Of a stretch of 64,000 nucleotides of DNA, positions 16,138-62,239 are shown piece by piece. The notes beneath the pieces are model-generated. The model did not search any database, had not been told where the DNA came from, and was given only the letters and a program-made list of their open reading frames with translations. Source of the DNA: Patescibacteria group bacterium. Lineage in GTDB: Bacteria; Patescibacteriota; Patescibacteriia; 2-01-FULL-39-33. The translations under genes and the position numbers were made by a program. The number at the start of each line of letters is the position of its first letter. The stretch's first letter is position 1. The stretch is from contig JBAZKF010000001.1 of NCBI GenBank assembly GCA_041650895.1, positions 17,685 through 81,684 on the forward strand, in the 5' to 3' direction.

Positions 16138-17697
16138 TTATTTGGCTTCCTGCTCGGCCATGACTTTGGCCGGCGGGTTGCACGGTGAAGCGGATGAATC
16201 GGCCTGCGTTTGTTTTGCGGCCATCTCTCCTGGCCCCCTTGGCTCCTTGATCTCAAGATAATTGTATTGATCCTGGAATTGTTCGCGCAGTTGGTTTTGG
16301 ATATTATCCATAATTCCCCGGCGTTTATTGTTTATTGCTTTTTGCCGGCGCGACAGGAGTTCGTTTCTGACTAAATTAACAGTGACATCGCGTATGACTT
16401 GGTAATCAACTTCTGACAGTGTGCCGTCCGCGCCTTTGGCTTCTACGGTTATGCCGCTAAGTTCTTGATCAATTACCTCAAGCGGTTTAACGGCGCCGCT
16501 TTCGGTTATGGCCTTTTTAGCCGCGGTTTGGCCGGCGTTAATAAGCTCTTGTTCCAGATCGGCTTGCGTCTGCTTATTTTTCATCATCCGCTTCCAGTCG
16601 CTTTCAAATGTCGCCTGGTCTGTTATGGCATACTTGATCCAGAAGCAGAACTTTTCTCCGTTTTTATCATTGTCCAGCGGCACCTCAACTGGGATGCCCT
16701 CGCGTTGGATGATTATGCCCGGCGCATAGCTTCTGGTGAACAAATTGACATACGCGTTTTCGTAATGCGGGATGTAATGTTTGTCTCCGCTATCGGCGAT
16801 ACGGCCGATTAAATTGCCGTTGGAACGATCAATTACCACTAAGGGAGGACAAAAGCCAGCCGTTGGAGTCTCAAAGACTTCATAAATTGAAAGCGAGGTG
16901 ATTAAGATCAAAAAGACAAAAAATCCCCTGGAGATGCAGTCATCCTCTGTCATGTTGGTAAGCATAGCGCACATTAAGGATACTGTGGCTCCTAGTATAA
17001 AGGAGGCAACTATAATTAGAAGGCCACAAAACCAAGCCAGACTAAAGCTGAAATAAGCAATATTGACAACAGCCAAGCAAATAAATGAAGCAACAGCAAT
17101 AACAATCAGCGTTATGTAGATAATAAGCGAAAACTTACGCTTTATAAGTTTCAATAATTTCAATAGTTTGGTTGCCGTTTTTTTTGTTTGCGGATAAACA
17201 TCGCCGGCCTTAGTCATTAGCCATTTGAAAGTCAAAACCACCCCCTGGCCAGCTAAAGCAATCAGCCAAAGCATAGCCATTATTATCGGCTTCAAAGCGC
17301 CATTGGCGAGACGTTTTATAGCCGGCGGCGGTTTGAGCATGGCTTCCACTTGGGGCAAGCTGGCCGCCGATTGCGATAACAGCAACCTAAGGAGGGGCCA
17401 CATTTTTGATTTGAACGGCTCATAAACAAAACCGCCTTCATTATAAGATGATCGGCCGGTGGCTAAGTGGTAAAGGGTAACACCTAAGGCGTAGAGCCCG
17501 TCACAAACATTGTTGGCCGTTTTGATTTTAGCCGATTGCTCACAGCGGACCCGACCCTTGTTGTCAATAAAAATATCTCGCGGGTCGTAGATGATATAAG
17601 TGCCATTTTCCGCCTGCTCCTGGAATTGCTGGAAGATGAAGCGAGCGACTTTGCCCAAGTCATCATCAAGCATTAACCGATTCGATACTTTTTGCAT
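16138..17697 (-). CDS. membrane protein with kinase C-lobe-like remnant (tandem paralog)
   Basis: YDPRDIFIDNKGRV, LGVTLYHLATG; shares the C-terminal motif NLFTxxYAPGI...G(I)xVEVP with the 14642 gene. Confidence 0.55.
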   Translation of the reverse strand: MQKVSNRLMLDDDLGKVARFIFQQFQEQAENGTYIIYDPRDIFIDNKGRVRCEQSAKIKTANNVCDGLYALGVTLYHLATGRSSYNEGGFVYEPFKSKMWPLLRLLLSQSAASLPQVEAMLKPPPAIKRLANGALKPIIMAMLWLIALAGQGVVLTFKWLMTKAGDVYPQTKKTATKLLKLLKLIKRKFSLIIYITLIVIAVASFICLAVVNIAYFSFSLAWFCGLLIIVASFILGATVSLMCAMLTNMTEDDCISRGFFVFLILITSLSIYEVFETPTAGFCPPLVVIDRSNGNLIGRIADSGDKHYIPHYENAYVNLFTRSYAPGIIIQREGIPVEVPLDNDKNGEKFCFWIKYAITDQATFESDWKRMMKNKQTQADLEQELINAGQTAAKKAITESGAVKPLEVIDQELSGITVEAKGADGTLSEVDYQVIRDVTVNLVRNELLSRRQKAINNKRRGIMDNIQNQLREQFQDQYNYLEIKEPRGPGEMAAKQTQADSSASPCNPPAKVMAEQEAK

Positions 17698-18265: not shown

Positions 18266-19336
18266 ATGCAAGATAAATTGCAACAATTGCAAATCAGGTT
18301 TGAGGAATTAGAACGTCTACTGCAGCTAGACGCCGTGATTAACGATCCTGCCAAAATCAAAGAAGTGTCGCAGGAGTATGATGATTTGAAAGAAATTATC
18401 GCCGCCAAGAAGCAATTGGATAAAACCAATGCGGAGTTGGCGGGAGTGGAAAAGATGTTTTTGGATAATAAAGATGACCAGGAATTATACAAGATATCAC
18501 TGGAAGAGAAAACTGATTTAACACGCCAAAAAGAAGAAACAGAAAAATTAATCAAATCGTTATTAATTCCCAAAGACCCGGCTGATAAGAAGAATGTTAT
18601 TGTGGAGATTCGCGCCGGCGCCGGTGGCGATGAAGCGGCGCTGTTTGCGGCCGAGTTGTTCCGTCTTTATAACCGCTATGCGGAAAAACATAATTGGAAA
18701 ACCAAGCTGATTTCTGACAGTCGTATTGGCATTGGCGGATTCAAGGAAGTGATTTTTGAAATCGCCGGCAATGGCGTTTACGGCCGGTTGAAATTTGAAA
18801 GCGGTGTGCATCGTGTCCAGCGCGTACCGGAAACCGAGAAAAAGGGTCGCGTCCATACTTCCACCGTTACTGTCGTTGTGTTGCCGGAGGTGGAGGAAAT
18901 GGATATGAGAATTGAATCCAAAGACATCCGCATCGACACTTTTTGCGCCGGCGGTCATGGCGGCCAGTCGGTCAATACCACCTACTCGGCCGTACGCATC
19001 ACCCATCTGCCTACCGGACTGGCTGTGTCTTGCCAGGACGAACGCAGCCAGTTGCAGAATCGTGAGAAAGCCATGTTAGTACTGCGCTCCCGCTTGTATG
19101 ATCTGAAACGCCAAGAAGAAGAAGCCAAACTTTCGGCGACTCGCAAATCGCAAATCGGTACCGGCGATCGGAGTGAAAAAATCCGCACTTACAATTTCCC
19201 TCAGGATCGCATTACTGATCATCGCATCAATGAGAATTTTTCCAATATTCCCGGAGTTATGGATGGCGATTTAGACAGGATTTTGGATCGTCTTAAAGAA
19301 TATTATGACGCCCAAGCCATTAGCGGGCAGGAATAA
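18266..19336 (+). CDS. prfA: peptide chain release factor 1
   Basis: GGQ motif [20 protein letters not shown]; RF1-type tripeptide region reads PET. Confidence 0.9.
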
Positions 19337-19396: not shown

Positions 19397-20002
19397 TTAA
19401 TAACGACTGTTAGGGCTGTCGGGCAGATTTTTATGCGGACGGAGTTGAATGGCATCATCCAATTTGAAGCGTTTACGTGTAGATTGATAATGAGCCTGTA
19501 AGAGTAGCGGTTGTTTGCCTTCCAATTGATTACCCCAACGCAGTTTACAGAGCCCGATGAGATACTCGGCATGGCCGTTCTGAAACGCCGGTGACTCATG
19601 GATGGCGCGAATCGGACGCCATTCATCATCCGTTAAGATTAAAATACTATTTTTGTAAGGCGAGACGCGGAAGAGACGGGTAAGATAATCAATTTTGCTG
19701 GTGTAATGCATGAGCGAGAATAGCCACATCCAATATTGGTGCAGTTCGTTATCTTGAATCGGTTCGCCGTTTAGGCGGCAGGTCATAGCTATTGCCGGTG
19801 GCAATTTGAATTCTTTAATAAGAAGTGAGCGCGGTATTTTGGCGTAATTCATGCTGGCAAGGCATAGGGTTACCATTATATCTTTATTCGGCCGTTGGCC
19901 GGTTGCTTTGGCCTCCCAGAATTGAACTACGGCCTTCAGGTAATTATCAATAATTTGTCTGTATTCTTCCAAAGCGTCGCTACAGCCACAAGACATGTTC
20001 AA
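19397..20002 (-). CDS. hypothetical protein inserted between prfA and prmC
   Basis: 201-aa ORF, Cys/Trp-rich; no recognisable domain. Confidence 0.45.
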   Translation of the reverse strand: MNMSCGCSDALEEYRQIIDNYLKAVVQFWEAKATGQRPNKDIMVTLCLASMNYAKIPRSLLIKEFKLPPAIAMTCRLNGEPIQDNELHQYWMWLFSLMHYTSKIDYLTRLFRVSPYKNSILILTDDEWRPIRAIHESPAFQNGHAEYLIGLCKLRWGNQLEGKQPLLLQAHYQSTRKRFKLDDAIQLRPHKNLPDSPNSRY

Positions 20003-20073: not shown

Positions 20074-20931
20074 ATGTCAATAGCTGAAATATTGCAGCCA
20101 GCTGTCAAAAAATTAAAAAATCGGAATATCATTTCGGCTGAACTGGACGCAGAATTGCTTCTGGCTTCTGTTTTAGCTCGGTCGCGCGAGTTTGTTTTGG
20201 CTCATCCGGAATTTAAGCTGACTGCCAAGCAATTGGGCAGGTTTAAAAGTCTGCTGGAACGTCGGATTAATTATGAACCGATAGCCTATATTCTGGGGAG
20301 TAAAGAGTTTTTTGGCTTGGAACTCAAGGTTAACAGAAACGTCCTAATCCCCCGCCCAGAAACTGAAACCGTGGTGGAAATGGCGCTTGATTATTGTCGC
20401 CGTTTAAAAATTAAGAAGCCGTGGTTGATTGATGTCGGCACTGGTTCTGGTGCCATTGCTTTAGCCCTGAAAAAAACCTTGCCTCAAGCGGAAGTTTTGG
20501 CTGTAGATAATTCAACACCGGCTGTGGCTTTAGCTAAACAGAATGCCAAACATCATGAATTGGAGATAAAGTTTATAAAAAGCGACTTACTTAGTCGGGT
20601 TAGTGATACTGAGCTAAAAGGTTCAGTAATTGTCGCCAATCTGCCTTATTTGAGTCCGATAACGATTAAACGGTATGCTCCGGCCTTAAAACGACAGTTA
20701 GCTTATGAGCCCAAAGTTGCTCTTTATGCCGGCCGTTACGGCACTGACGCTTATGACAATCTATTCCGGCAGTTGGTTTCTCGTCCGGTTCGGCCACGGG
20801 CCGTGTTTTGCGAAATCGGGCCATGCCATTGGCGAGAATATTACCGAGTGGCTAAGAAATATTTTCCTCTGCAGAAGCTGGAAATCAAGCCTGATCTGGC
20901 TGGCAAGAAAAGGTGTTTGATTATCTATTAG
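20074..20931 (+). CDS. prmC: release factor glutamine N5-methyltransferase
   Basis: LIDVGTGSGAIALAL SAM-binding motif and VIVANLPY (NPPY-type) motif. Confidence 0.85.
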   Translation: MSIAEILQPAVKKLKNRNIISAELDAELLLASVLARSREFVLAHPEFKLTAKQLGRFKSLLERRINYEPIAYILGSKEFFGLELKVNRNVLIPRPETETVVEMALDYCRRLKIKKPWLIDVGTGSGAIALALKKTLPQAEVLAVDNSTPAVALAKQNAKHHELEIKFIKSDLLSRVSDTELKGSVIVANLPYLSPITIKRYAPALKRQLAYEPKVALYAGRYGTDAYDNLFRQLVSRPVRPRAVFCEIGPCHWREYYRVAKKYFPLQKLEIKPDLAGKKRCLIIY

Positions 20932-20982: not shown

Positions 20983-21657
20983 CTATTTTTTATCCTTGTC
21001 TTCATTAGCGGTTGCAGTTTCGCCTTCGGCAGGAACAGTTTCGCCTTCGGCAGGAACAGTTTCGCCTTCGGCAGGAACAGCCGGAGTTTCTTCCACTTCA
21101 ACTTTCGGTCGAGCCACATTAGCTATAGCATCGTCAGGATGATGATGTAGAACTTCCAGGGTTGCCGGGATTTTTAGGTCGGCTAAGGTGATGACATCGT
21201 CAAAAGTATTCAAAGGTGTGATATCAACTACGATTTCATGGATCAAATCAGTCGGTAAACAGTGCACTTCCAATTCGGAAACATTATGCACTAATACTCC
21301 GGCGTCTTCCTTAACGGCGCGGGATTCGCCGGTGAATGTTAGAGGAATGGTGGCGTGCATCTTTTCTTTCATATTGATCTGATGCAAGTCGGCATGGGTA
21401 ATGCGTCCTTTGACCGGTTCAAATTGGACTTCGGAAATAATCGTTTTGATCGGCGCTCCGCCGTCAATACTTAAGTCAATAATGGTGCTCTCGCCAGCTT
21501 CTTTCAATACCTTTTCAAATTCAATATAATTGAATTCTAGATTCTGATTGGTTTGGCCGTGGCCGTAGATTACCGCCGGGACAGAGCCTTGGGCTCTTAG
21601 TGCTTGGACTTTTTTGCCCAATTCTTTACGGGTTTTAGCTTTTAGATTCAATGTCAT
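20983..21657 (-). CDS. rplY: 50S ribosomal protein L25/general stress protein Ctc with C-terminal PAEGETV repeats
   Basis: MTLNLKAKTRKELGKKVQALRAQGSVPAVIYGHGQTNQNLEF L25 N-terminus. Confidence 0.85.
   Translation of the reverse strand: MTLNLKAKTRKELGKKVQALRAQGSVPAVIYGHGQTNQNLEFNYIEFEKVLKEAGESTIIDLSIDGGAPIKTIISEVQFEPVKGRITHADLHQINMKEKMHATIPLTFTGESRAVKEDAGVLVHNVSELEVHCLPTDLIHEIVVDITPLNTFDDVITLADLKIPATLEVLHHHPDDAIANVARPKVEVEETPAVPAEGETVPAEGETVPAEGETATANEDKDKK
21015..21077. repeat. 3 x 21-bp perfect tandem repeat inside the rplY coding region
   Basis: CAGTTTCGCCTTCGGCAGGAA x3, encoding (V)PAEGET x3. Confidence 0.8.
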
Positions 21658-21763: not shown

Positions 21764-21797
21764 AGAAAAAAAGCCCCATTAATTGGGGCTTCGTTTG
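21764..21797 (-). terminator. intrinsic terminator after the rSAM/SPASM operon
   Basis: AGCCCCA-TTAAT-TGGGGCT perfect hairpin; 7-T run on the minus strand. Confidence 0.55.
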
Positions 21798-21816: not shown

Positions 21817-22425
21817 TTATTCGGCGGGAACGGAAGGTTCGGTGTTAGTGTTCTTTTTAGTAAAGGCGCCGTATTTAATCATTGCTGTCCCTGAACCGCC
21901 GGGCCAGTCAGAGAAAGCTCCATAAAAAGTCATTATGCCGTCCGGCGTACTGGGCGGGAAAAATGGTCGCCTCCTCAGTTGCCGGGGAAGGGGCGAGCTT
22001 TCCGGAGGTAGTTCCGGGATGGGGGGTAAATTATTGTTTTGGTCTAGCTGTTCAATTAGCACTTGTTCCGCCGTCTTGAAAACAATTTCTTGTTTCTCGT
22101 GATCATAATCAGCAAACAAGCGGTTAAAGGCAAAAACAATTTGCAAATCATCATTAAGCAGGACGCCGTAGTCGCAAATAGTTTCTTCGGCACCAAAAAT
22201 TCTAATGGCTAAATTGATCATCCCGGTTTCTTGGGGATAAGTGGCCATAAATTCTTCAGCTAATTTGGTTTGGCCTCGCATGACAATTAAATAATAATCT
22301 CGCGTCATTTCTTCCATAGAGTCTTGGGGATTCTGCCGATTCGGTAACTTTACTTCGACTTGATGACGCTGTAGGTCAAGCCGTAAAAAATTAAGGGCAC
22401 CGTCGCCAGTTTTTGGGTTGCTCAT
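21817..22425 (-). CDS. hypothetical protein with Pro-rich linker and C-terminal YGAF repeats; co-transcribed with the rSAM/SPASM gene
   Basis: 202 aa from an ATG with GGAGAG Shine-Dalgarno (ORF track begins at 22515, overlapping upstream); C-terminus FYGAFSDWPGGSGTAMIKYGAFTKK. Confidence 0.55.
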   Translation of the reverse strand: MSNPKTGDGALNFLRLDLQRHQVEVKLPNRQNPQDSMEEMTRDYYLIVMRGQTKLAEEFMATYPQETGMINLAIRIFGAEETICDYGVLLNDDLQIVFAFNRLFADYDHEKQEIVFKTAEQVLIEQLDQNNNLPPIPELPPESSPLPRQLRRRPFFPPSTPDGIMTFYGAFSDWPGGSGTAMIKYGAFTKKNTNTEPSVPAE

Positions 22426-22462
22426 CTTTTCTCTCCTTCTCGATTGTTGATTGACGTTTAAA

Positions 22463-23482
22463 TTAGTTAGATAAGCTATGCATGCAACAGAATGGCGCTC
22501 GTCCGAACTTATCAAAATGAGCTAAGGCCATGGATTTGCACCCGCCTTGGCACCAGGAGTATTCCTGGCAGTTTTGGCAAATTCCCGCCGCTTGGCAAAT
22601 TTTATCATCTCGAAAAAATCTCATAACTTCGCTGTCTTGTTGCCAGATCTCCCGCAATGTTTTTTGCCGTATGTTACCGAGAATAAAGCGTTCGTCCATT
22701 AGTGATAAACAAGGTAATACGTTGCCACAGGCATCAATGCCGACGGTCTGTTTGCCGGCAGTGCAGCCGGGCCAGTCAGAGCCGCGCAAGATGTTGCAAT
22801 CGTAGTTGAAGCAATCAGCCGCTCTAATATCCAAACGATGATCGTAGTTCCGTCGCAACCACGCCAAGGTGAGGCAAACATGGCGAAAGATTCTTTCATT
22901 AATCATTAGTTTGCTGTTACCCTTGGCTCGATCTATCGGTGAGATCAACTGGACTTGCCAGCCGGAAGCCCCGACTTGATATAATGTATTAGCCAAGTTG
23001 TGTAGCATCATATAGTTTAGGCGGTTGACAGTAGTAATGGCGGTAACTGGCAGGCCGATAGAGTTAGCTGTGGCGATGGCGTTTAGCGCTCTGCGCCAAG
23101 ACTGGCAGTTGCCACGGATATAATTATGCACAGTCGCATCGCCGTCAATGGAAACGCCGATGGTGTAGGCCCCGGAATCTTTAAGACGTTTAGCCAAATC
23201 ATCGGTCATAGTCAGACCGTTGGTGATTAAGGCGAAGCCAAGCTGTTTTTCCTTTAAGCCATCAAGCAGTTGCGGAAAATCATCTTTAATAGTCGTTTCA
23301 CCGCCGGATAAAGCCAACTGTTTTAATCCTAGTTCTCGCAGTTGATCAAAAACTCCCAGCCATTCATCGGCTGTCAGCTCATTAGCTTTAAGGGCTTTTA
23401 CGCAACCGGAGCCACAGTGCCTGCAATTGAGGTTGCAGCTTGCGGTCGTTTCTATCACTGCGTTAGTAATCTTATCAAACAA
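22463..23482 (-). CDS. radical SAM/SPASM-domain maturase-like enzyme
   Basis: CNLNCRHC (CxxxCxxC), ALSGGE; C-terminal Cys cluster CQNCQEYSWCQGGC...FCC typical of SPASM; TTG start with AAGGAGG Shine-Dalgarno. Confidence 0.8.
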   Translation of the reverse strand: MFDKITNAVIETTASCNLNCRHCGSGCVKALKANELTADEWLGVFDQLRELGLKQLALSGGETTIKDDFPQLLDGLKEKQLGFALITNGLTMTDDLAKRLKDSGAYTIGVSIDGDATVHNYIRGNCQSWRRALNAIATANSIGLPVTAITTVNRLNYMMLHNLANTLYQVGASGWQVQLISPIDRAKGNSKLMINERIFRHVCLTLAWLRRNYDHRLDIRAADCFNYDCNILRGSDWPGCTAGKQTVGIDACGNVLPCLSLMDERFILGNIRQKTLREIWQQDSEVMRFFRDDKICQAAGICQNCQEYSWCQGGCKSMALAHFDKFGRAPFCCMHSLSN

Positions 23483-23582
23483 TACATTATCCTCCTTTCT
23501 ATTTTTTGTTGAATTGCCTGGTTATACTGTTAGGTTGTAAGGATCTTTTGATGTTTCATCTTATTCCTAAAAGCAAAAGTTG

Positions 23583-24692
23583 TCAAGTGGTGCGATGGCC
23601 ATATCTGGCGATGGATAAATTGATGCCGATAAGTATCATCATGGTCAGCAAAAAACTGCCACCGTAAGAAACTAACGGTAAAGAAATTCCGGTTACCGGC
23701 AATAAGCCGACGCACATACCGATATTAATGAAGACATGGGAAAACACCAGGGCGGCGGTCAGCAGGGCAATAAACATGCCCAAGTCATCGGGCGCGCGCG
23801 TGGCAATGCGATATAAGCGAAAAAAGAACAAACTGAATAATCCTAAGACTAGGCAGACGCCGACAAAGCCGATTTCTTCAGCGACGACGGAAAAAATAAA
23901 ATCTGTCTGGCTTTCCGGAATAAACTTAAGCTGGCTTTGGCTGCCGAAGCCTAATCCTCGACCCATCAGTTTTCCGGCGCCGACGGCAATGATGGACTGG
24001 CGCACATTGTATCCCCTGCCTTGCGGATCCAGTGACGGGTTAATAAAAGTGAAGATGCGGGCTTGCTGATAATCTTGAAAAACAAAAAACCAGGCAAAGA
24101 GCAATGAGGCTGTAATTAAACCGAAGATTAAAAAGATTTGCCAGCGTTTTTGGACGATTAATATGAATGCCGCTAGCCAGATAAAAAACAGTACCATGGC
24201 TGATCCGAAGTCCGGCTGTAAGGCGACTAAGCATAACGGTACGGCTACGATAGCTCCCAAGAATATCAAATGCCAGAATTTGTATAAGGTGCGGCTGTAG
24301 CGACTGCAAATGTCAGCCAGAACGATAATTAAGAATATTTTGGTCAGTTCTACCGGTTGGAAACTCATAAAGCCAAAATCAAACCAACCGCGAGCCCCGT
24401 TGACCACCTGACCCAAAGGAGTTAAAACCAAAATCAATAGCACAATGGATACGGCATAACCGATCCAGCCGACATAGCGGAAAACCCGGTAATCCAGAAA
24501 AGAGATCGCGCCGGCTGCGCTCAGGGAAATAAACAACCAGAGGATTTGTTTGCGGAAATTATCAAATTCGCCCAAACCGCGGCCCAAGGCAACACTATAA
24601 ATGGCGGCTAAGCCGAAAAGCATTAAAAAAATCGAGCTAGCCAAAAGCCACCAATCGATTTTTTTGAATAAATTTGTAATTAAAGTTTGCAT
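23583..24692 (-). CDS. ftsW: SEDS-family peptidoglycan glycosyltransferase FtsW/RodA
   Basis: 10-TM protein with the conserved ...LPVTGISLPLVSYGGS C-terminal motif; ends with TGA. Confidence 0.8.
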   Translation of the reverse strand: MQTLITNLFKKIDWWLLASSIFLMLFGLAAIYSVALGRGLGEFDNFRKQILWLFISLSAAGAISFLDYRVFRYVGWIGYAVSIVLLILVLTPLGQVVNGARGWFDFGFMSFQPVELTKIFLIIVLADICSRYSRTLYKFWHLIFLGAIVAVPLCLVALQPDFGSAMVLFFIWLAAFILIVQKRWQIFLIFGLITASLLFAWFFVFQDYQQARIFTFINPSLDPQGRGYNVRQSIIAVGAGKLMGRGLGFGSQSQLKFIPESQTDFIFSVVAEEIGFVGVCLVLGLFSLFFFRLYRIATRAPDDLGMFIALLTAALVFSHVFINIGMCVGLLPVTGISLPLVSYGGSFLLTMMILIGINLSIARYGHRTT

Positions 24693-29487: not shown

Positions 29488-29569
29488 ATTTGATATGTCG
29501 TAGATATTTGAATTAGTACGCGTTAGTTTTTTTATTTGAGTTAAGACAAAACAAAAATCACGTCCATAG

Positions 29570-29640
29570 CTCGGGGACAGGGGCTCGAACCCCGATTAAC
29601 GGCTTCAAAGGCCGCTGTCCTACCATTAGACGATCCCCGA
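29570..29640 (-). tRNA. tRNA-Gln (anticodon UUG)
   Basis: cloverleaf folded by hand: U1-A72 acceptor, D-arm GTCT/GGAC, anticodon loop CUUUGAA, T-loop TTCGAGC; 71 nt, no encoded CCA. Confidence 0.8.
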
Positions 29641-60206: not shown

Positions 60207-61694
60207 ATGAAATACTTTCTTTACGCCCGCAAGTCGACAGACGAAGAGGAGCGTCAAGTCCTTTCAATTGAAGCCCAGCTCGCAGAGCTGAAGGAGTTAG
60301 CCGCCAAAGAAAAATTGGAAATTGCTGACTCGCTCTGCGAGTCTAAAACCGCCAAAGAACCAGGCCGAAAAATTTTCGGCGAAATGCTCGCTCGGATTGA
60401 AAAAGGTGAAGCCGACGGAATTTTAGCGTGGCACCCAGATAGATTGGCCAGAAATAGCGTTGATGGTGGGAAGATTATCTACATGGTGGATATTGGCCAG
60501 ATTAAAACGCTGAAATTCCCGACTTTTTGGTTTGAGAATACTCCGCAAGGTAAATTCATGCTCAATATCGCTTTCGGCCAGAGCAAATACTATATTGATA
60601 ATTTAAGCGAAAATGTTAAGCGCGGATTCAGACAAAAGTTAAGGCGTGGCGAATATCCCAACAAAGCGCCTATTGGCTATCTTAATGACCGCATGGCTAA
60701 AACCGTGCTTATTGATCCTCTGCGCGCCAAGCTGATAATCAAGATGTTTGAGATGTACAGCACGGGAGAATTTTCGCTTAAATTTCTAAAAGATAAGTTT
60801 TGCGATATCGGTCTGACCAGTAAGCGAGGAAAAATCCTGACTGTCGGCATGATTTCTAATATATTGAGCAATCCCTTTTATTGCGGAGTATTCAAGTTTA
60901 ATGGCGAAATATACCAAGGCAAGTACGAGCCGATTATTTCCAAGAAGCTTTTTGATGAAGTTCAGGCGGTAATGCGGGATCGCGGCCGGCCGCTCGGGCA
61001 AGACAAGCACGACTACGCATTTACAGGACTAATGAAATGCAAATGCGGCGCCTGCATTACCGCTGAACGGCAAAAAGGCCATATCTATTATCGCTGTACG
61101 AAAAAGCTCGGAGCCTGCGATGAAAAGTATATCCGCGAAGAAAACTTGCTGGAGCAATTCTATGGCCTTTTTCAAAAAGCTTCTTTGTCTGATGACTGGA
61201 TTGACAAGATGCTCGCCAAACTGGACGAGGAACAGAAAAGCGATATGAAGTCATCTATTGGTCTGATTGATGAGGTTAAAGCGCAAATTGGTGGCCTAGA
61301 GAGCAAGTTAGACAAGTTATTAGATGACCGATTAGAAGGGTTATTGGACAAGGACGACTATTTGCGCAAGAAAGAACAGCTCATCAATCAAAAAATCACT
61401 TTTGAGGACAAAATCCAGTCAATCAGGCAAACAGGAAATAATTGGCTCGAACCGATGAGAGAATTCCTTTTCGCCAATAAACAAACCAAAAAAGTCGCCA
61501 ATGGCGGCGACCTTCTAGAGATTAGAGCATTTATTAAAAAAATCGGCTCGAACTTTATTTTGCAAGGCAAAAAATTTGAATTTAAGCCAAAAAACGGTTG
61601 GAATTCTGTTTTAAAAAATGAAAAGCGAAACTGGCTGCGGGACAGGGACTCGAACCCCGATACCACCCTCCAGAGGGGCGTGTCCTACCATTAG
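60207..61694 (+). CDS. large serine recombinase (resolvase/invertase catalytic domain plus recombinase and zinc-ribbon/coiled-coil domains)
   Basis: N-terminal YARKSTDEEERQVLSIEAQ (catalytic Ser region), RLARN, CxxC...CxxC zinc ribbon; 3' end runs through the right IR and antisense into the tRNA. Confidence 0.85.
   Translation: MKYFLYARKSTDEEERQVLSIEAQLAELKELAAKEKLEIADSLCESKTAKEPGRKIFGEMLARIEKGEADGILAWHPDRLARNSVDGGKIIYMVDIGQIKTLKFPTFWFENTPQGKFMLNIAFGQSKYYIDNLSENVKRGFRQKLRRGEYPNKAPIGYLNDRMAKTVLIDPLRAKLIIKMFEMYSTGEFSLKFLKDKFCDIGLTSKRGKILTVGMISNILSNPFYCGVFKFNGEIYQGKYEPIISKKLFDEVQAVMRDRGRPLGQDKHDYAFTGLMKCKCGACITAERQKGHIYYRCTKKLGACDEKYIREENLLEQFYGLFQKASLSDDWIDKMLAKLDEEQKSDMKSSIGLIDEVKAQIGGLESKLDKLLDDRLEGLLDKDDYLRKKEQLINQKITFEDKIQSIRQTGNNWLEPMREFLFANKQTKKVANGGDLLEIRAFIKKIGSNFILQGKKFEFKPKNGWNSVLKNEKRNWLRDRDSNPDTTLQRGVSYH
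61563..61637. repeat. 75-bp perfect inverted repeat, right copy, abutting the tRNA-Gln 3' end
   Basis: CAAGGCAAAAAATTTGAATTTAAGCCAAAAAACGGTTGGAATTCTGTTTTAAAAAATGAAAAGCGAAACTGGCTG. Confidence 0.85.
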
Positions 61695-61705
61695 ACGATC
61701 CCGCA
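61635..61705 (-). tRNA. tRNA-Gln (anticodon CUG)
   Basis: hand-folded cloverleaf; U1-A72; anticodon loop CUCUGGA; T-loop TTCGAGT; about 80% identical to the tRNA-Gln(UUG) at 29.6 kb. Confidence 0.8.
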
Positions 61706-61790: not shown

Positions 61791-61799
61791 TATAACACT

Positions 61800-62150
61800 G
61801 AGTATGACGGATAGTTACTCTTTGGCCTTAGGCCGAAGAGAGGAAAGTCCGAACACCCTTTTCGGCGCAAGCCGGAATGTCGCGGTAATGGGTAACGCCC
61901 ACCCGGACAGTCGTAAGGCTGGCCGAGGACCAGTTCCACAGAGACAATACTAACGAGATGCGCAAGTATTTCGCGAAAGGTGAAAAGTGTAGCGAAGTAT
62001 TAAGTTGAGAGTGAGATATCTCCTCAAATTAATGCCACCCTACTCAACTCCCAGCGATGGGCAGTTGTGGTAAACTCTACCTGGTGCAACCCCGTTTCGG
62101 GGGCTTGATCATGCCGGTAACGGCAATGACAGACAGATGACTATCGTTTT
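61800..62150 (+). ncRNA. rnpB: RNase P RNA (bacterial type A-like)
   Basis: universally conserved GAGGAAAGTCCG(AAC)... P4 strand, GGTAACGCC, terminal P1 pairing GGATAGT/ACTATC, followed by T-run. Confidence 0.7.
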
Positions 62151-62206
62151 TTACGGCCGCAAGGTTAGTAAAAAATACAGAATTCGGCTTATAGTCATAT
62201 TCAGTT

Positions 62207-62239
62207 AAAAAATACTTCGCTGCTGCGAGGTATTTTTTT
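62207..62239. terminator. bidirectional intrinsic terminator between rnpB and rnhA
   Basis: A6-TACTTCGC-TGCT-GCGAGGTA-T7. Confidence 0.6.

Follow-up and report, generated by a model that had tools for sequence, protein, structure and literature searches.

A radical SAM/SPASM enzyme and an adjoining protein with a conserved tail tyrosine form a putative enzyme-substrate cassette in Patescibacteria and DPANN archaea

What is the target of a radical S-adenosylmethionine (rSAM) enzyme when the one gene that stays beside it encodes a protein with a folded domain and a disordered, tyrosine-bearing tail? The question is raised by two adjoining genes in a 64,000-nucleotide (nt) stretch of DNA from a Patescibacteria group bacterium (contig JBAZKF010000001.1, positions 17,685 to 81,684), hereafter the window. 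One gene encodes a 339-amino acid (aa) rSAM/SPASM enzyme and the other a 202-aa protein, hereafter the partner, with two copies of the tetrapeptide YGAF near its C-terminus. A preliminary description of the locus had proposed an enzyme-precursor pair resembling those that produce peptides synthesized ribosomally and modified post-translationally (RiPPs), and this proposal is supported as far as sequence comparison reaches. It is probable that the two genes constitute a self-contained enzyme-substrate cassette with the partner tail as the putative substrate.

The enzyme is a genuine member of the rSAM/SPASM class. Its SAM-cluster motif, C16-x3-C20-x2-C23 (CNLNCRHC), is accompanied by a GGE motif (within LSGGETT), and the SPASM cysteines (C240, C258, C302-x2-C305-x5-C311-x3-C315 and C332) match the seven-cysteine motif CX9-15GX4C...CX2CX5CX3C...C. 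Together with C224 upstream of them, this full set is 98-100% conserved across the clade. Pfam assigns residues 10-162 to Radical_SAM (PF04055; 75.9 bits versus a cutoff of 29.5) and residues 240-306 to SPASM (PF13186; 43.8 bits versus 21.5). Because the rSAM core begins at about residue 10, the enzyme has no room for an N-terminal RiPP recognition element (RRE) domain. The TTG start, the Shine-Dalgarno sequence and both cysteine motifs had been read correctly in the preliminary description and lie on the minus strand. So had the partner gene, whose ATG (22425) stands exactly 37 nt 3' of the rSAM stop codon behind a Shine-Dalgarno sequence of its own, and the terminator, a hairpin 25 nt 3' of the partner stop codon. 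The longest mechanically called open reading frame (ORF) of the partner begins at an upstream TTG and has 232 aa; the 202-aa form is favoured by the homologue alignment and by an identical 202-aa database entry. A promoter-like site lies within the ~100-nt gap between the stop of the preceding ftsW/rodA gene and the rSAM start. Shuffling predicts as many such sites in the region as are found, and the site is weak evidence that the rSAM gene has its own transcription start. Neither gene has a second copy in the window.

Enzyme and partner co-occur strictly. Partner loci were found through the pattern FAFNRxFAD alone, taken from a 12-sequence alignment, in a scan of one genome per species (14 loci) and in a metagenome scan (26 loci, five of which start at a contig edge). 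Co-occurrence in relatives had been set beforehand as the result on which the proposed pair should stand or fall, and directly upstream of the partner, in the same orientation, an rSAM gene of the same group is present at 14/14 genome loci and at all 21 metagenome loci with upstream DNA. Seen from the enzyme side, 4/4 clade members have a partner downstream. The rSAM homologues P0007, P0008 and P0012 (~40% identity) adjoin purL, an integrase gene and argS and are each followed by a gene for a 150-170-aa partner homologue, and P0019 likewise has a partner downstream, though it was not called as a gene. The outgroup rSAMs P0024 and P0027 (33-35% identity) have no partner alongside. In an all-against-all comparison of 17 non-redundant loci only the rSAM and the partner are common to the neighbourhoods, the flanks being unrelated (purL, integrase, argS, ftsW/L25), and no conserved protease, exporter/transporter or RRE/PqqD-like protein was found among the neighbours. 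The pairwise identities of enzymes and of partners are correlated (Spearman 0.75 for 15 single-module loci and 0.53 for 12 double-module loci); at the level of sequence, the two proteins co-diverge.

The genome loci carry the labels Patescibacteria, Buchananbacteria, Magasanikbacteria, Woesearchaeota, Pacearchaeota, Nanoarchaeota and unclassified archaea. One of the 14 (L019; CAYIBK010000002.1) is labelled 'uncultured Gammaproteobacteria', the only label outside Patescibacteria, DPANN and unclassified, which could reflect mislabelling, faulty binning or a genuine transfer. Some cassettes adjoin phage-integrase or serine-recombinase genes (L008/L009, 3114-3887; L054, 4603-7029), hinting that the cassette is mobile, which fits its patchy spread over bacteria and archaea; no partner relatives were found in viral contigs. 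The partner downstream of P0019 (L054:4013-4527) seems to be split over two reading frames with its core VLLKYGLMD intact, and the split may stem from a frameshift, from decay of the gene or from an error in sequencing. A search of the full-text literature found no description of the pair, the domain or the motif, which is not proof that they are unpublished.

The partner consists of a folded domain and a disordered tail that carries the core motifs. In the AlphaFold2 model (54-sequence alignment) residues ~10-130 form a domain with the secondary-structure order H-E-E-H-H-E-E-E-E-H and predicted local distance difference test (pLDDT) values >90, while the tail from residue 131 on is modelled at low confidence and lacks secondary structure, the linker (131-163) having pLDDT values of 46-72. 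The preliminary description had taken the first ~150 residues as a leader domain; a folded domain on a disordered tether fits that idea, but the domain itself is shorter, at ~125-130 residues. The domain is strongly conserved and bears the polar family signature FAFNRxFADYD (residues 98-108). Across the family, Pro, Gly and Arg abound in the linker, whose length differs widely between members (a 26-residue deletion distinguishes P0003). For the short-linker member P0132 (152 aa) the domain is predicted with pLDDT >95; its tail, too, is modelled without structure, and the core does not dock onto the domain. The partner sequence has no signal peptide or hydrophobic segment. It has no match in Pfam, NCBIfam (E <= 0.1) or PADLOC, a search of the PDB with the partner family profile returned nothing even at E <= 10, and Foldseek against the PDB with two partner-family models gave nothing better than E = 0.4, with TM <0.25. 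An RRE-like fold was rejected for the domain, the helix/strand order not being that of a winged helix and no PqqD structure being matched, as was a self-cleaving protease role, since a 47-sequence alignment shows no set of invariant residues of catalytic type.

The tail has the sequence ...IMTFYGAFSDWPGGSGTAMIKYGAFTKKNTNTEPSVPAE, its two YGAF copies (residues 168-171 and 185-188) containing Y168 and Y185. The stretch quoted in the preliminary description as the end of the protein is correct in sequence, but 11 more residues (NTNTEPSVPAE) follow it. Taken alone, the duplication means little: a repeated tetrapeptide arises by chance in 16% of whole-protein shuffles, and in 1% when only the last 51 residues are shuffled. 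The repeat itself is therefore weak evidence, and comparative support is needed. This support comes from a partner family that a full HMMER scan of 1.84 billion representative sequences places at 115 clusters (E <= 1e-3; 83 at 1e-10), in size classes of ~150-200 aa and ~300-380 aa. A word-index search with the partner sequence returned only the protein itself and two relatives of 54-57% identity, and one with the partner alignment returned six; the two relatives come from Buchananbacteria-like genomes with the gene order UvrD, MacB-type permease, FtsW/RodA, rSAM, partner, L25. In the 47-sequence alignment the only invariant positions are L46, F100 and Y185, making tyrosine the sole invariant residue of the tail (47/47).

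The consensus over 171 cores is G-[T/M]-V-I-[R47/K25%]-Y-[A40/S39/G18%]-[L51/I24/V9%]-x-[G52/E16/D9%]-[K/P]-K, and 129/145 modules have a matching core. Together with the invariance of Y185, this consensus identifies the second YGAF as the family-wide core. The first (TFYGAFSD) aligns only with close Buchananbacteria-like relatives (TLYGIFPD, TLYGGFPE) and is, on this alignment, an additional core of that lineage. Both copies of the duplicated YGAF that the preliminary description emphasized are thus real, but the family unit is hh[KR]-Y-[A/S/G]-[L/I/V] (h, hydrophobic), in which the Phe is not conserved, and only the second copy is universal. General across the cores are only the Tyr and a small residue at +1; Cys is missing from most of them, Gly or Ser occupies +2 in a few (the first core of P0003/P0221, P0109, P0183), and Gly-rich stretches lie ahead of many. 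Other members carry two to four cores (e.g. P0108, P0111, P0212, P0213). In the archaeal proteins of ~300-380 aa the whole module is duplicated in tandem, a core (for example ...MLIRYALQGRED...) being succeeded by a second domain, linker and core(s).

Relatives of the enzyme provide a further view of the tail. In a rough neighbour-joining tree, whose deep nodes are unreliable, the partner-linked rSAMs fall into a bacterial group, with the window enzyme inside it, and an archaeal group, and the nearest neighbours of the latter are P0025 and P0038. P0025 is followed by a 79-aa peptide (L053:2637-2876) for which NCBIfam has no model and which contains VSVIYGGPS and VALIYGGPS, a core of two V-x-x-IYGGPS units. 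The protein encoded after P0038 (L056:1161-1679) has an N-terminus rich in Ala and contains PVLIYGVISP, LTLKYGIAPA and IVMKYGIWPH, three units of the form hhh[IK]YG[VI]xP. Neither precursor has the partner domain, and together they look like a second unnamed precursor family of the same enzyme group, with a hhh-x-Y-G-x-x-P core. Since these sister precursors have a core of the same kind with a different leader, the hydrophobic-x-Tyr-small-x core follows the enzyme group and not the domain. The presence of the Tyr core in sister precursors is the strongest comparative argument that this core is the target of the enzyme, and the changing leader argues that the folded domain is a leader/recognition element and not the functional end product.

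Table 1. Positions of the cassette features in the window
Feature	Coordinates	Strand	Basis
Promoter-like site, TTGACA-17-TAAGAT, 10/12 matches	23558..23586	-	consensus scan
Shine-Dalgarno sequence AAGGAGG, 8 nt 5' of the rSAM TTG	23491..23497	-	sequence reading
Radical SAM/SPASM enzyme gene, 339 aa, TTG start	22463..23482	-	ORF, sequence, Pfam
Shine-Dalgarno sequence GGAGAG (extended form AAGGAGAG), 5' of the partner ATG	22431..22436	-	sequence reading
Partner gene, 202 aa, ATG start; putative substrate/precursor protein	21817..22425	-	ORF, database entry, homologue alignment
Partner residues 1-130, folded alpha/beta domain; proposed leader/docking domain	22036..22425	-	AlphaFold2, conserved columns
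Partner residues 131-163, disordered Pro/Arg-rich linker	21937..22035	-	AlphaFold2, alignment gaps
Core 1, IMTFYGAFSD (Y168), extra core	21907..21936	-	alignment with close relatives
Core 2, AMIKYGAFTKK (Y185), family-wide core	21853..21885	-	alignment, motif counts
Intrinsic-terminator-like hairpin, 9-bp stem (5 G-C pairs), then TTTTCTTATT (T-run)	21770..21792	-	sequence

A mechanism can be proposed on this basis, and we regard its main steps (binding of the partner domain, presentation of the core by the tether and radical hydrogen abstraction at or next to the tyrosine) as likely. The enzyme, predicted to hold a single SAM cluster and a pair of auxiliary clusters, both fully ligated, and having no RRE, would recognise the partner by way of the folded N-terminal domain of ~125 residues that the partner itself carries, this docking compensating for the missing RRE. 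The disordered Pro/Gly/Arg tether would then bring the hh[KR]-Y-[A/S/G]-[L/I/V] core into the active site, where the 5'-deoxyadenosyl radical would take a hydrogen and lead to a modification at or beside the invariant tyrosine, predicted to be Y185 here and probably also Y168 in the extra core. For the chemistry, the likeliest outcome may be an intramolecular crosslink of the Tyr ring, of cyclophane type and with a mass change of -2 Da; epimerisation or C-beta modification are the alternatives. Such a crosslink would be the most economical guess, held with low confidence.

A chemical analogy is offered by the triceptides, in which enzymes of the rSAM class that make cyclophanes of three residues (3-CyFEs) act on aromatic-X-X motifs, the characterised motifs named for them including HTK, HAA, HNR, YDR and FTK with X3 mostly polar or basic (PMC11499958). 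The partner core Y-[A/S/G]-[L/I/V] has the same aromatic1-X2-X3 form (171 cores, with a few Gly/Ser exceptions at +2), and the two systems are alike in having repeatable cores within one precursor and a SPASM-type enzyme. They differ in that X3 is aliphatic in the partner cores and in that the large folded leader has no counterpart among 3-CyFE precursors; no 3-CyFE model is among the 25 best NCBIfam matches of the enzyme. A -2 Da aryl-to-C-beta link is, by this analogy, chemically plausible at most partner cores. A universal link from Tyr to the C-beta at +2 was rejected, because some cores have Gly or Ser at +2, and the Gly at this position in the P0003/P0221 core and in the YGGPS of the sister peptide excludes a C-beta link there.

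Several observations weigh against a RiPP-like enzyme-substrate pair of this kind, beginning with the failure of a universal +2 link. No conserved protease, exporter or RRE lies nearby, which is unusual for a secreted RiPP. Duplication of a whole leader-like domain with each core is likewise unusual for RiPP precursors, and could mean that domain and tail act as one protein. In addition, the rough tree does not unite the partner-linked rSAMs of bacteria and archaea in a single clean clade. For the fate of the product the indications are divided: the lack of protease and exporter, the cytoplasmic look of the partner and the whole-module duplication favour a modification that would stay on the protein, whereas the varying core number, the Gly-rich stretches before cores and the domain-less sister precursors favour a peptide that would be released.

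The alternative that survives best, a serious one though clearly the less probable, takes up the first of these possibilities. It holds that the partner is a functional protein whose tail tyrosine would be turned in situ into a crosslink or redox-active group, with domain and modified tail working together inside the cell, and not a precursor that is cleaved. It shares the enzyme-substrate step with the favoured reading and differs from it only in what becomes of the product and what the product does. The model for such a reaction is QhpD, a rSAM/SPASM enzyme that crosslinks the small protein subunit QhpC through Cys-to-Asp/Glu thioethers, or else a peptide-derived cofactor. QhpD and QhpC resemble the present pair in that a SPASM enzyme adjoins a protein-sized partner, the QhpC product remaining functional as a protein. 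Unlike QhpC, the partner has Tyr as its invariant residue, with Cys missing from most cores, and its loci have no dehydrogenase subunits nearby; QhpD too is absent from the 25 best NCBIfam matches of the enzyme. A two-gene cassette without conserved protease or exporter (17 loci), a partner without signal peptide or hydrophobic segment, the strong conservation of a domain with the polar signature FAFNRxFADYD, and the archaeal duplication of domain together with core are all consistent with modification in situ, as are the hosts, judged from their taxon labels to be reduced-genome organisms that rarely keep secondary metabolism. Opposed to this are the AlphaFold2 models, which leave the tail undocked on the domain even in P0132, where the linker is short; the sister rSAMs, whose use of short peptides or unrelated leaders makes the domain dispensable for such chemistry; and the number of cores, which at one to four is typical of precursor peptides. 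The enzyme's scores, moreover, fall far short of the MftC and PqqE cutoffs, and the loci lack downstream cofactor genes. An extension of the same idea, by which a minimal two-gene system exchanged between Patescibacteria and DPANN archaea would place a permanent modification on the tyrosine of a tethered tail inside the cell, is offered tentatively and appears unlikely on balance.

Known enzyme families bear on two further alternatives. The enzyme reaches no NCBIfam family cutoff. Its three best profile matches, TIGR04103 (Nif11-class peptide radical SAM maturase 3, the best-scoring named family; 179.5 bits versus a cutoff of 725), TIGR04133 (173.8 versus 425) and TIGR03913 (153.6 versus 592), are all peptide-associated maturases, and its archaeal and sister relatives score 222-232 bits against TIGR04103. 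Among solved structures, SkfB (E = 9e-17) and PqqE (E = 9e-12) come nearest. Membership in TIGR04103 was rejected, the score being below cutoff and the adjoining partner having no Nif11-type leader (no Pfam or NCBIfam match at E <= 0.1), and so was a defence role as a prokaryotic viperin (pVip), since the 63-bit PADLOC match covers the generic core (residues 12-202) and the enzyme has a SPASM domain, which viperin-type rSAM enzymes lack.

That the enzyme might act on a small molecule, in the manner of AhbD and NirJ on tetrapyrroles, with the partner merely an accessory, scaffold or carrier, is improbable. Scores against AhbD (129.9 bits; cutoff 500) and NirJ2 (126.3 bits) lie in the range of several peptide maturases, and the lack of any family assignment leaves room for such an activity; but the best matches are peptide-associated, the sister enzymes are paired with short repeat peptides, no genes of a tetrapyrrole or other pathway are conserved nearby, and an accessory role would hardly account for an invariant tyrosine in a tail that is disordered and prone to repeats.

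A maturase for sulfatases or for a quinone/redox cofactor (PqqE, MftC or QhpD-like) acting on an unrelated substrate is more improbable still. The enzyme shares the generic SPASM architecture with these maturases, and PqqE is the second-best solved relative, yet the scores against the anaerobic sulfatase maturase (anSME; TIGR03942; 67.6 bits versus 349), PqqE (TIGR02109; 105.6 versus 381) and MftC (TIGR03962; 121.6 versus 265) are all well below cutoff; firm clustering with such maturases had been named in the preliminary description as a result that would refute the pair, and the scores do not show it. The absence of a sulfatase, noted in that description as well, was borne out: no sulfatase-type motif (C/S-x-P-x-R) was found in window ORFs of at least 150 aa, and no pqq or mft genes occur in any locus. 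MftC and PqqE do offer a parallel as SPASM enzymes acting on a Tyr near the C-terminus of MftA and PqqA, for which the counterpart here would be the putative site Y185. PqqA carries an E-x3-Y motif and MftA a C-terminal GVY motif. The partner tail has neither, its Tyr being neither C-terminal nor preceded by a conserved Glu four residues upstream, and no MftB/D/E/F or PqqB/C/D genes lie beside the cassette. Finally, the idea that adjacency is only the inherited synteny of a few close relatives and the YGAF repeat chance in a low-complexity tail, to which the word-index matches (all close homologues in the one UvrD-MacB-FtsW-rSAM-partner-L25 order) and the shuffle frequency of 16% lend some colour, is refuted by the 115 clusters, by pairing at 35/35 informative loci, which span two domains of life and have unrelated flanks, and by the invariance of the tyrosine, leaving it a negligible probability.

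Set beside the known rSAM-RiPP systems (for example SkfB/SkfA, PqqE/PqqA and TIGR04103), the cassette is alike in the CX3CX2C motif and full set of SPASM cysteines, in an adjoining precursor gene on the same strand and in a short conserved C-terminal core that is repeated in some members. It is unlike them in having no RRE domain on the enzyme and no PqqD-like gene nearby, in a 'leader' that is a ~125-residue folded domain without a match to a known family or fold, in archaeal partners that repeat leader and core together, in the lack of a conserved protease or exporter, and in its hosts, which are Patescibacteria and DPANN archaea.

Other features of the window were recorded alongside the cassette. 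The L25/Ctc gene (20983..21657, minus strand) contains a perfect 21-bp tandem repeat of 3.1 copies (21015..21080), which the C-terminal tail of ribosomal protein L25 carries as (ETVPAEG)x3. Between prmC (20074..20931) and prfA (18266..19336) lies a 201-aa ORF (19397..20002, minus strand) without a Pfam match, and each of the two related genomes (L001/L002 and L003/L004) has a 199-aa gene at that place. A 519-aa ORF (16138..17697, minus strand) begins with a kinase-like stretch at its N-terminus and contains several segments that are hydrophobic, and homologous unannotated genes of 500-515 aa are found at its position in related genomes. The window also holds a bacterial class A RNase P RNA (61799..62207, plus strand; 137.8 bits) and two tRNA-Gln genes with anticodons UUG and CUG (29569..29640 and 61632..61705, both minus strand).

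Patescibacteria and DPANN archaea have tiny genomes with few non-essential genes, and their specialised chemistry is little known. Within these organisms the cassette is strictly linked across two domains of life, centres on an invariant tyrosine as its putative target and includes a domain unmatched in Pfam, NCBIfam and the PDB, and with its folded leader-like domain, its lack of RRE and of tailoring or export genes, and its archaeal module duplication it is unusual for rSAM/SPASM systems. For the RiPP field it is no conceptual surprise; it is a clean, testable system in organisms whose biochemistry has been little explored and, comprising two genes and one residue, a compact and tractable entry point. 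Current mining for rSAM-RiPP systems seeks short precursors and RRE domains and would therefore miss the partner family. If the modification proves to be a crosslink or a Tyr-derived redox or structural group borne by the protein itself and used inside the cell, it would represent a new class of protein-level rSAM modification and not a secreted natural product. The cassette could reveal new rSAM chemistry on tyrosine, and it could show how an enzyme recognises its substrate by a folded leader domain, fused to that substrate, in place of an RRE; either would extend the rules by which rSAM-RiPP systems are mined.

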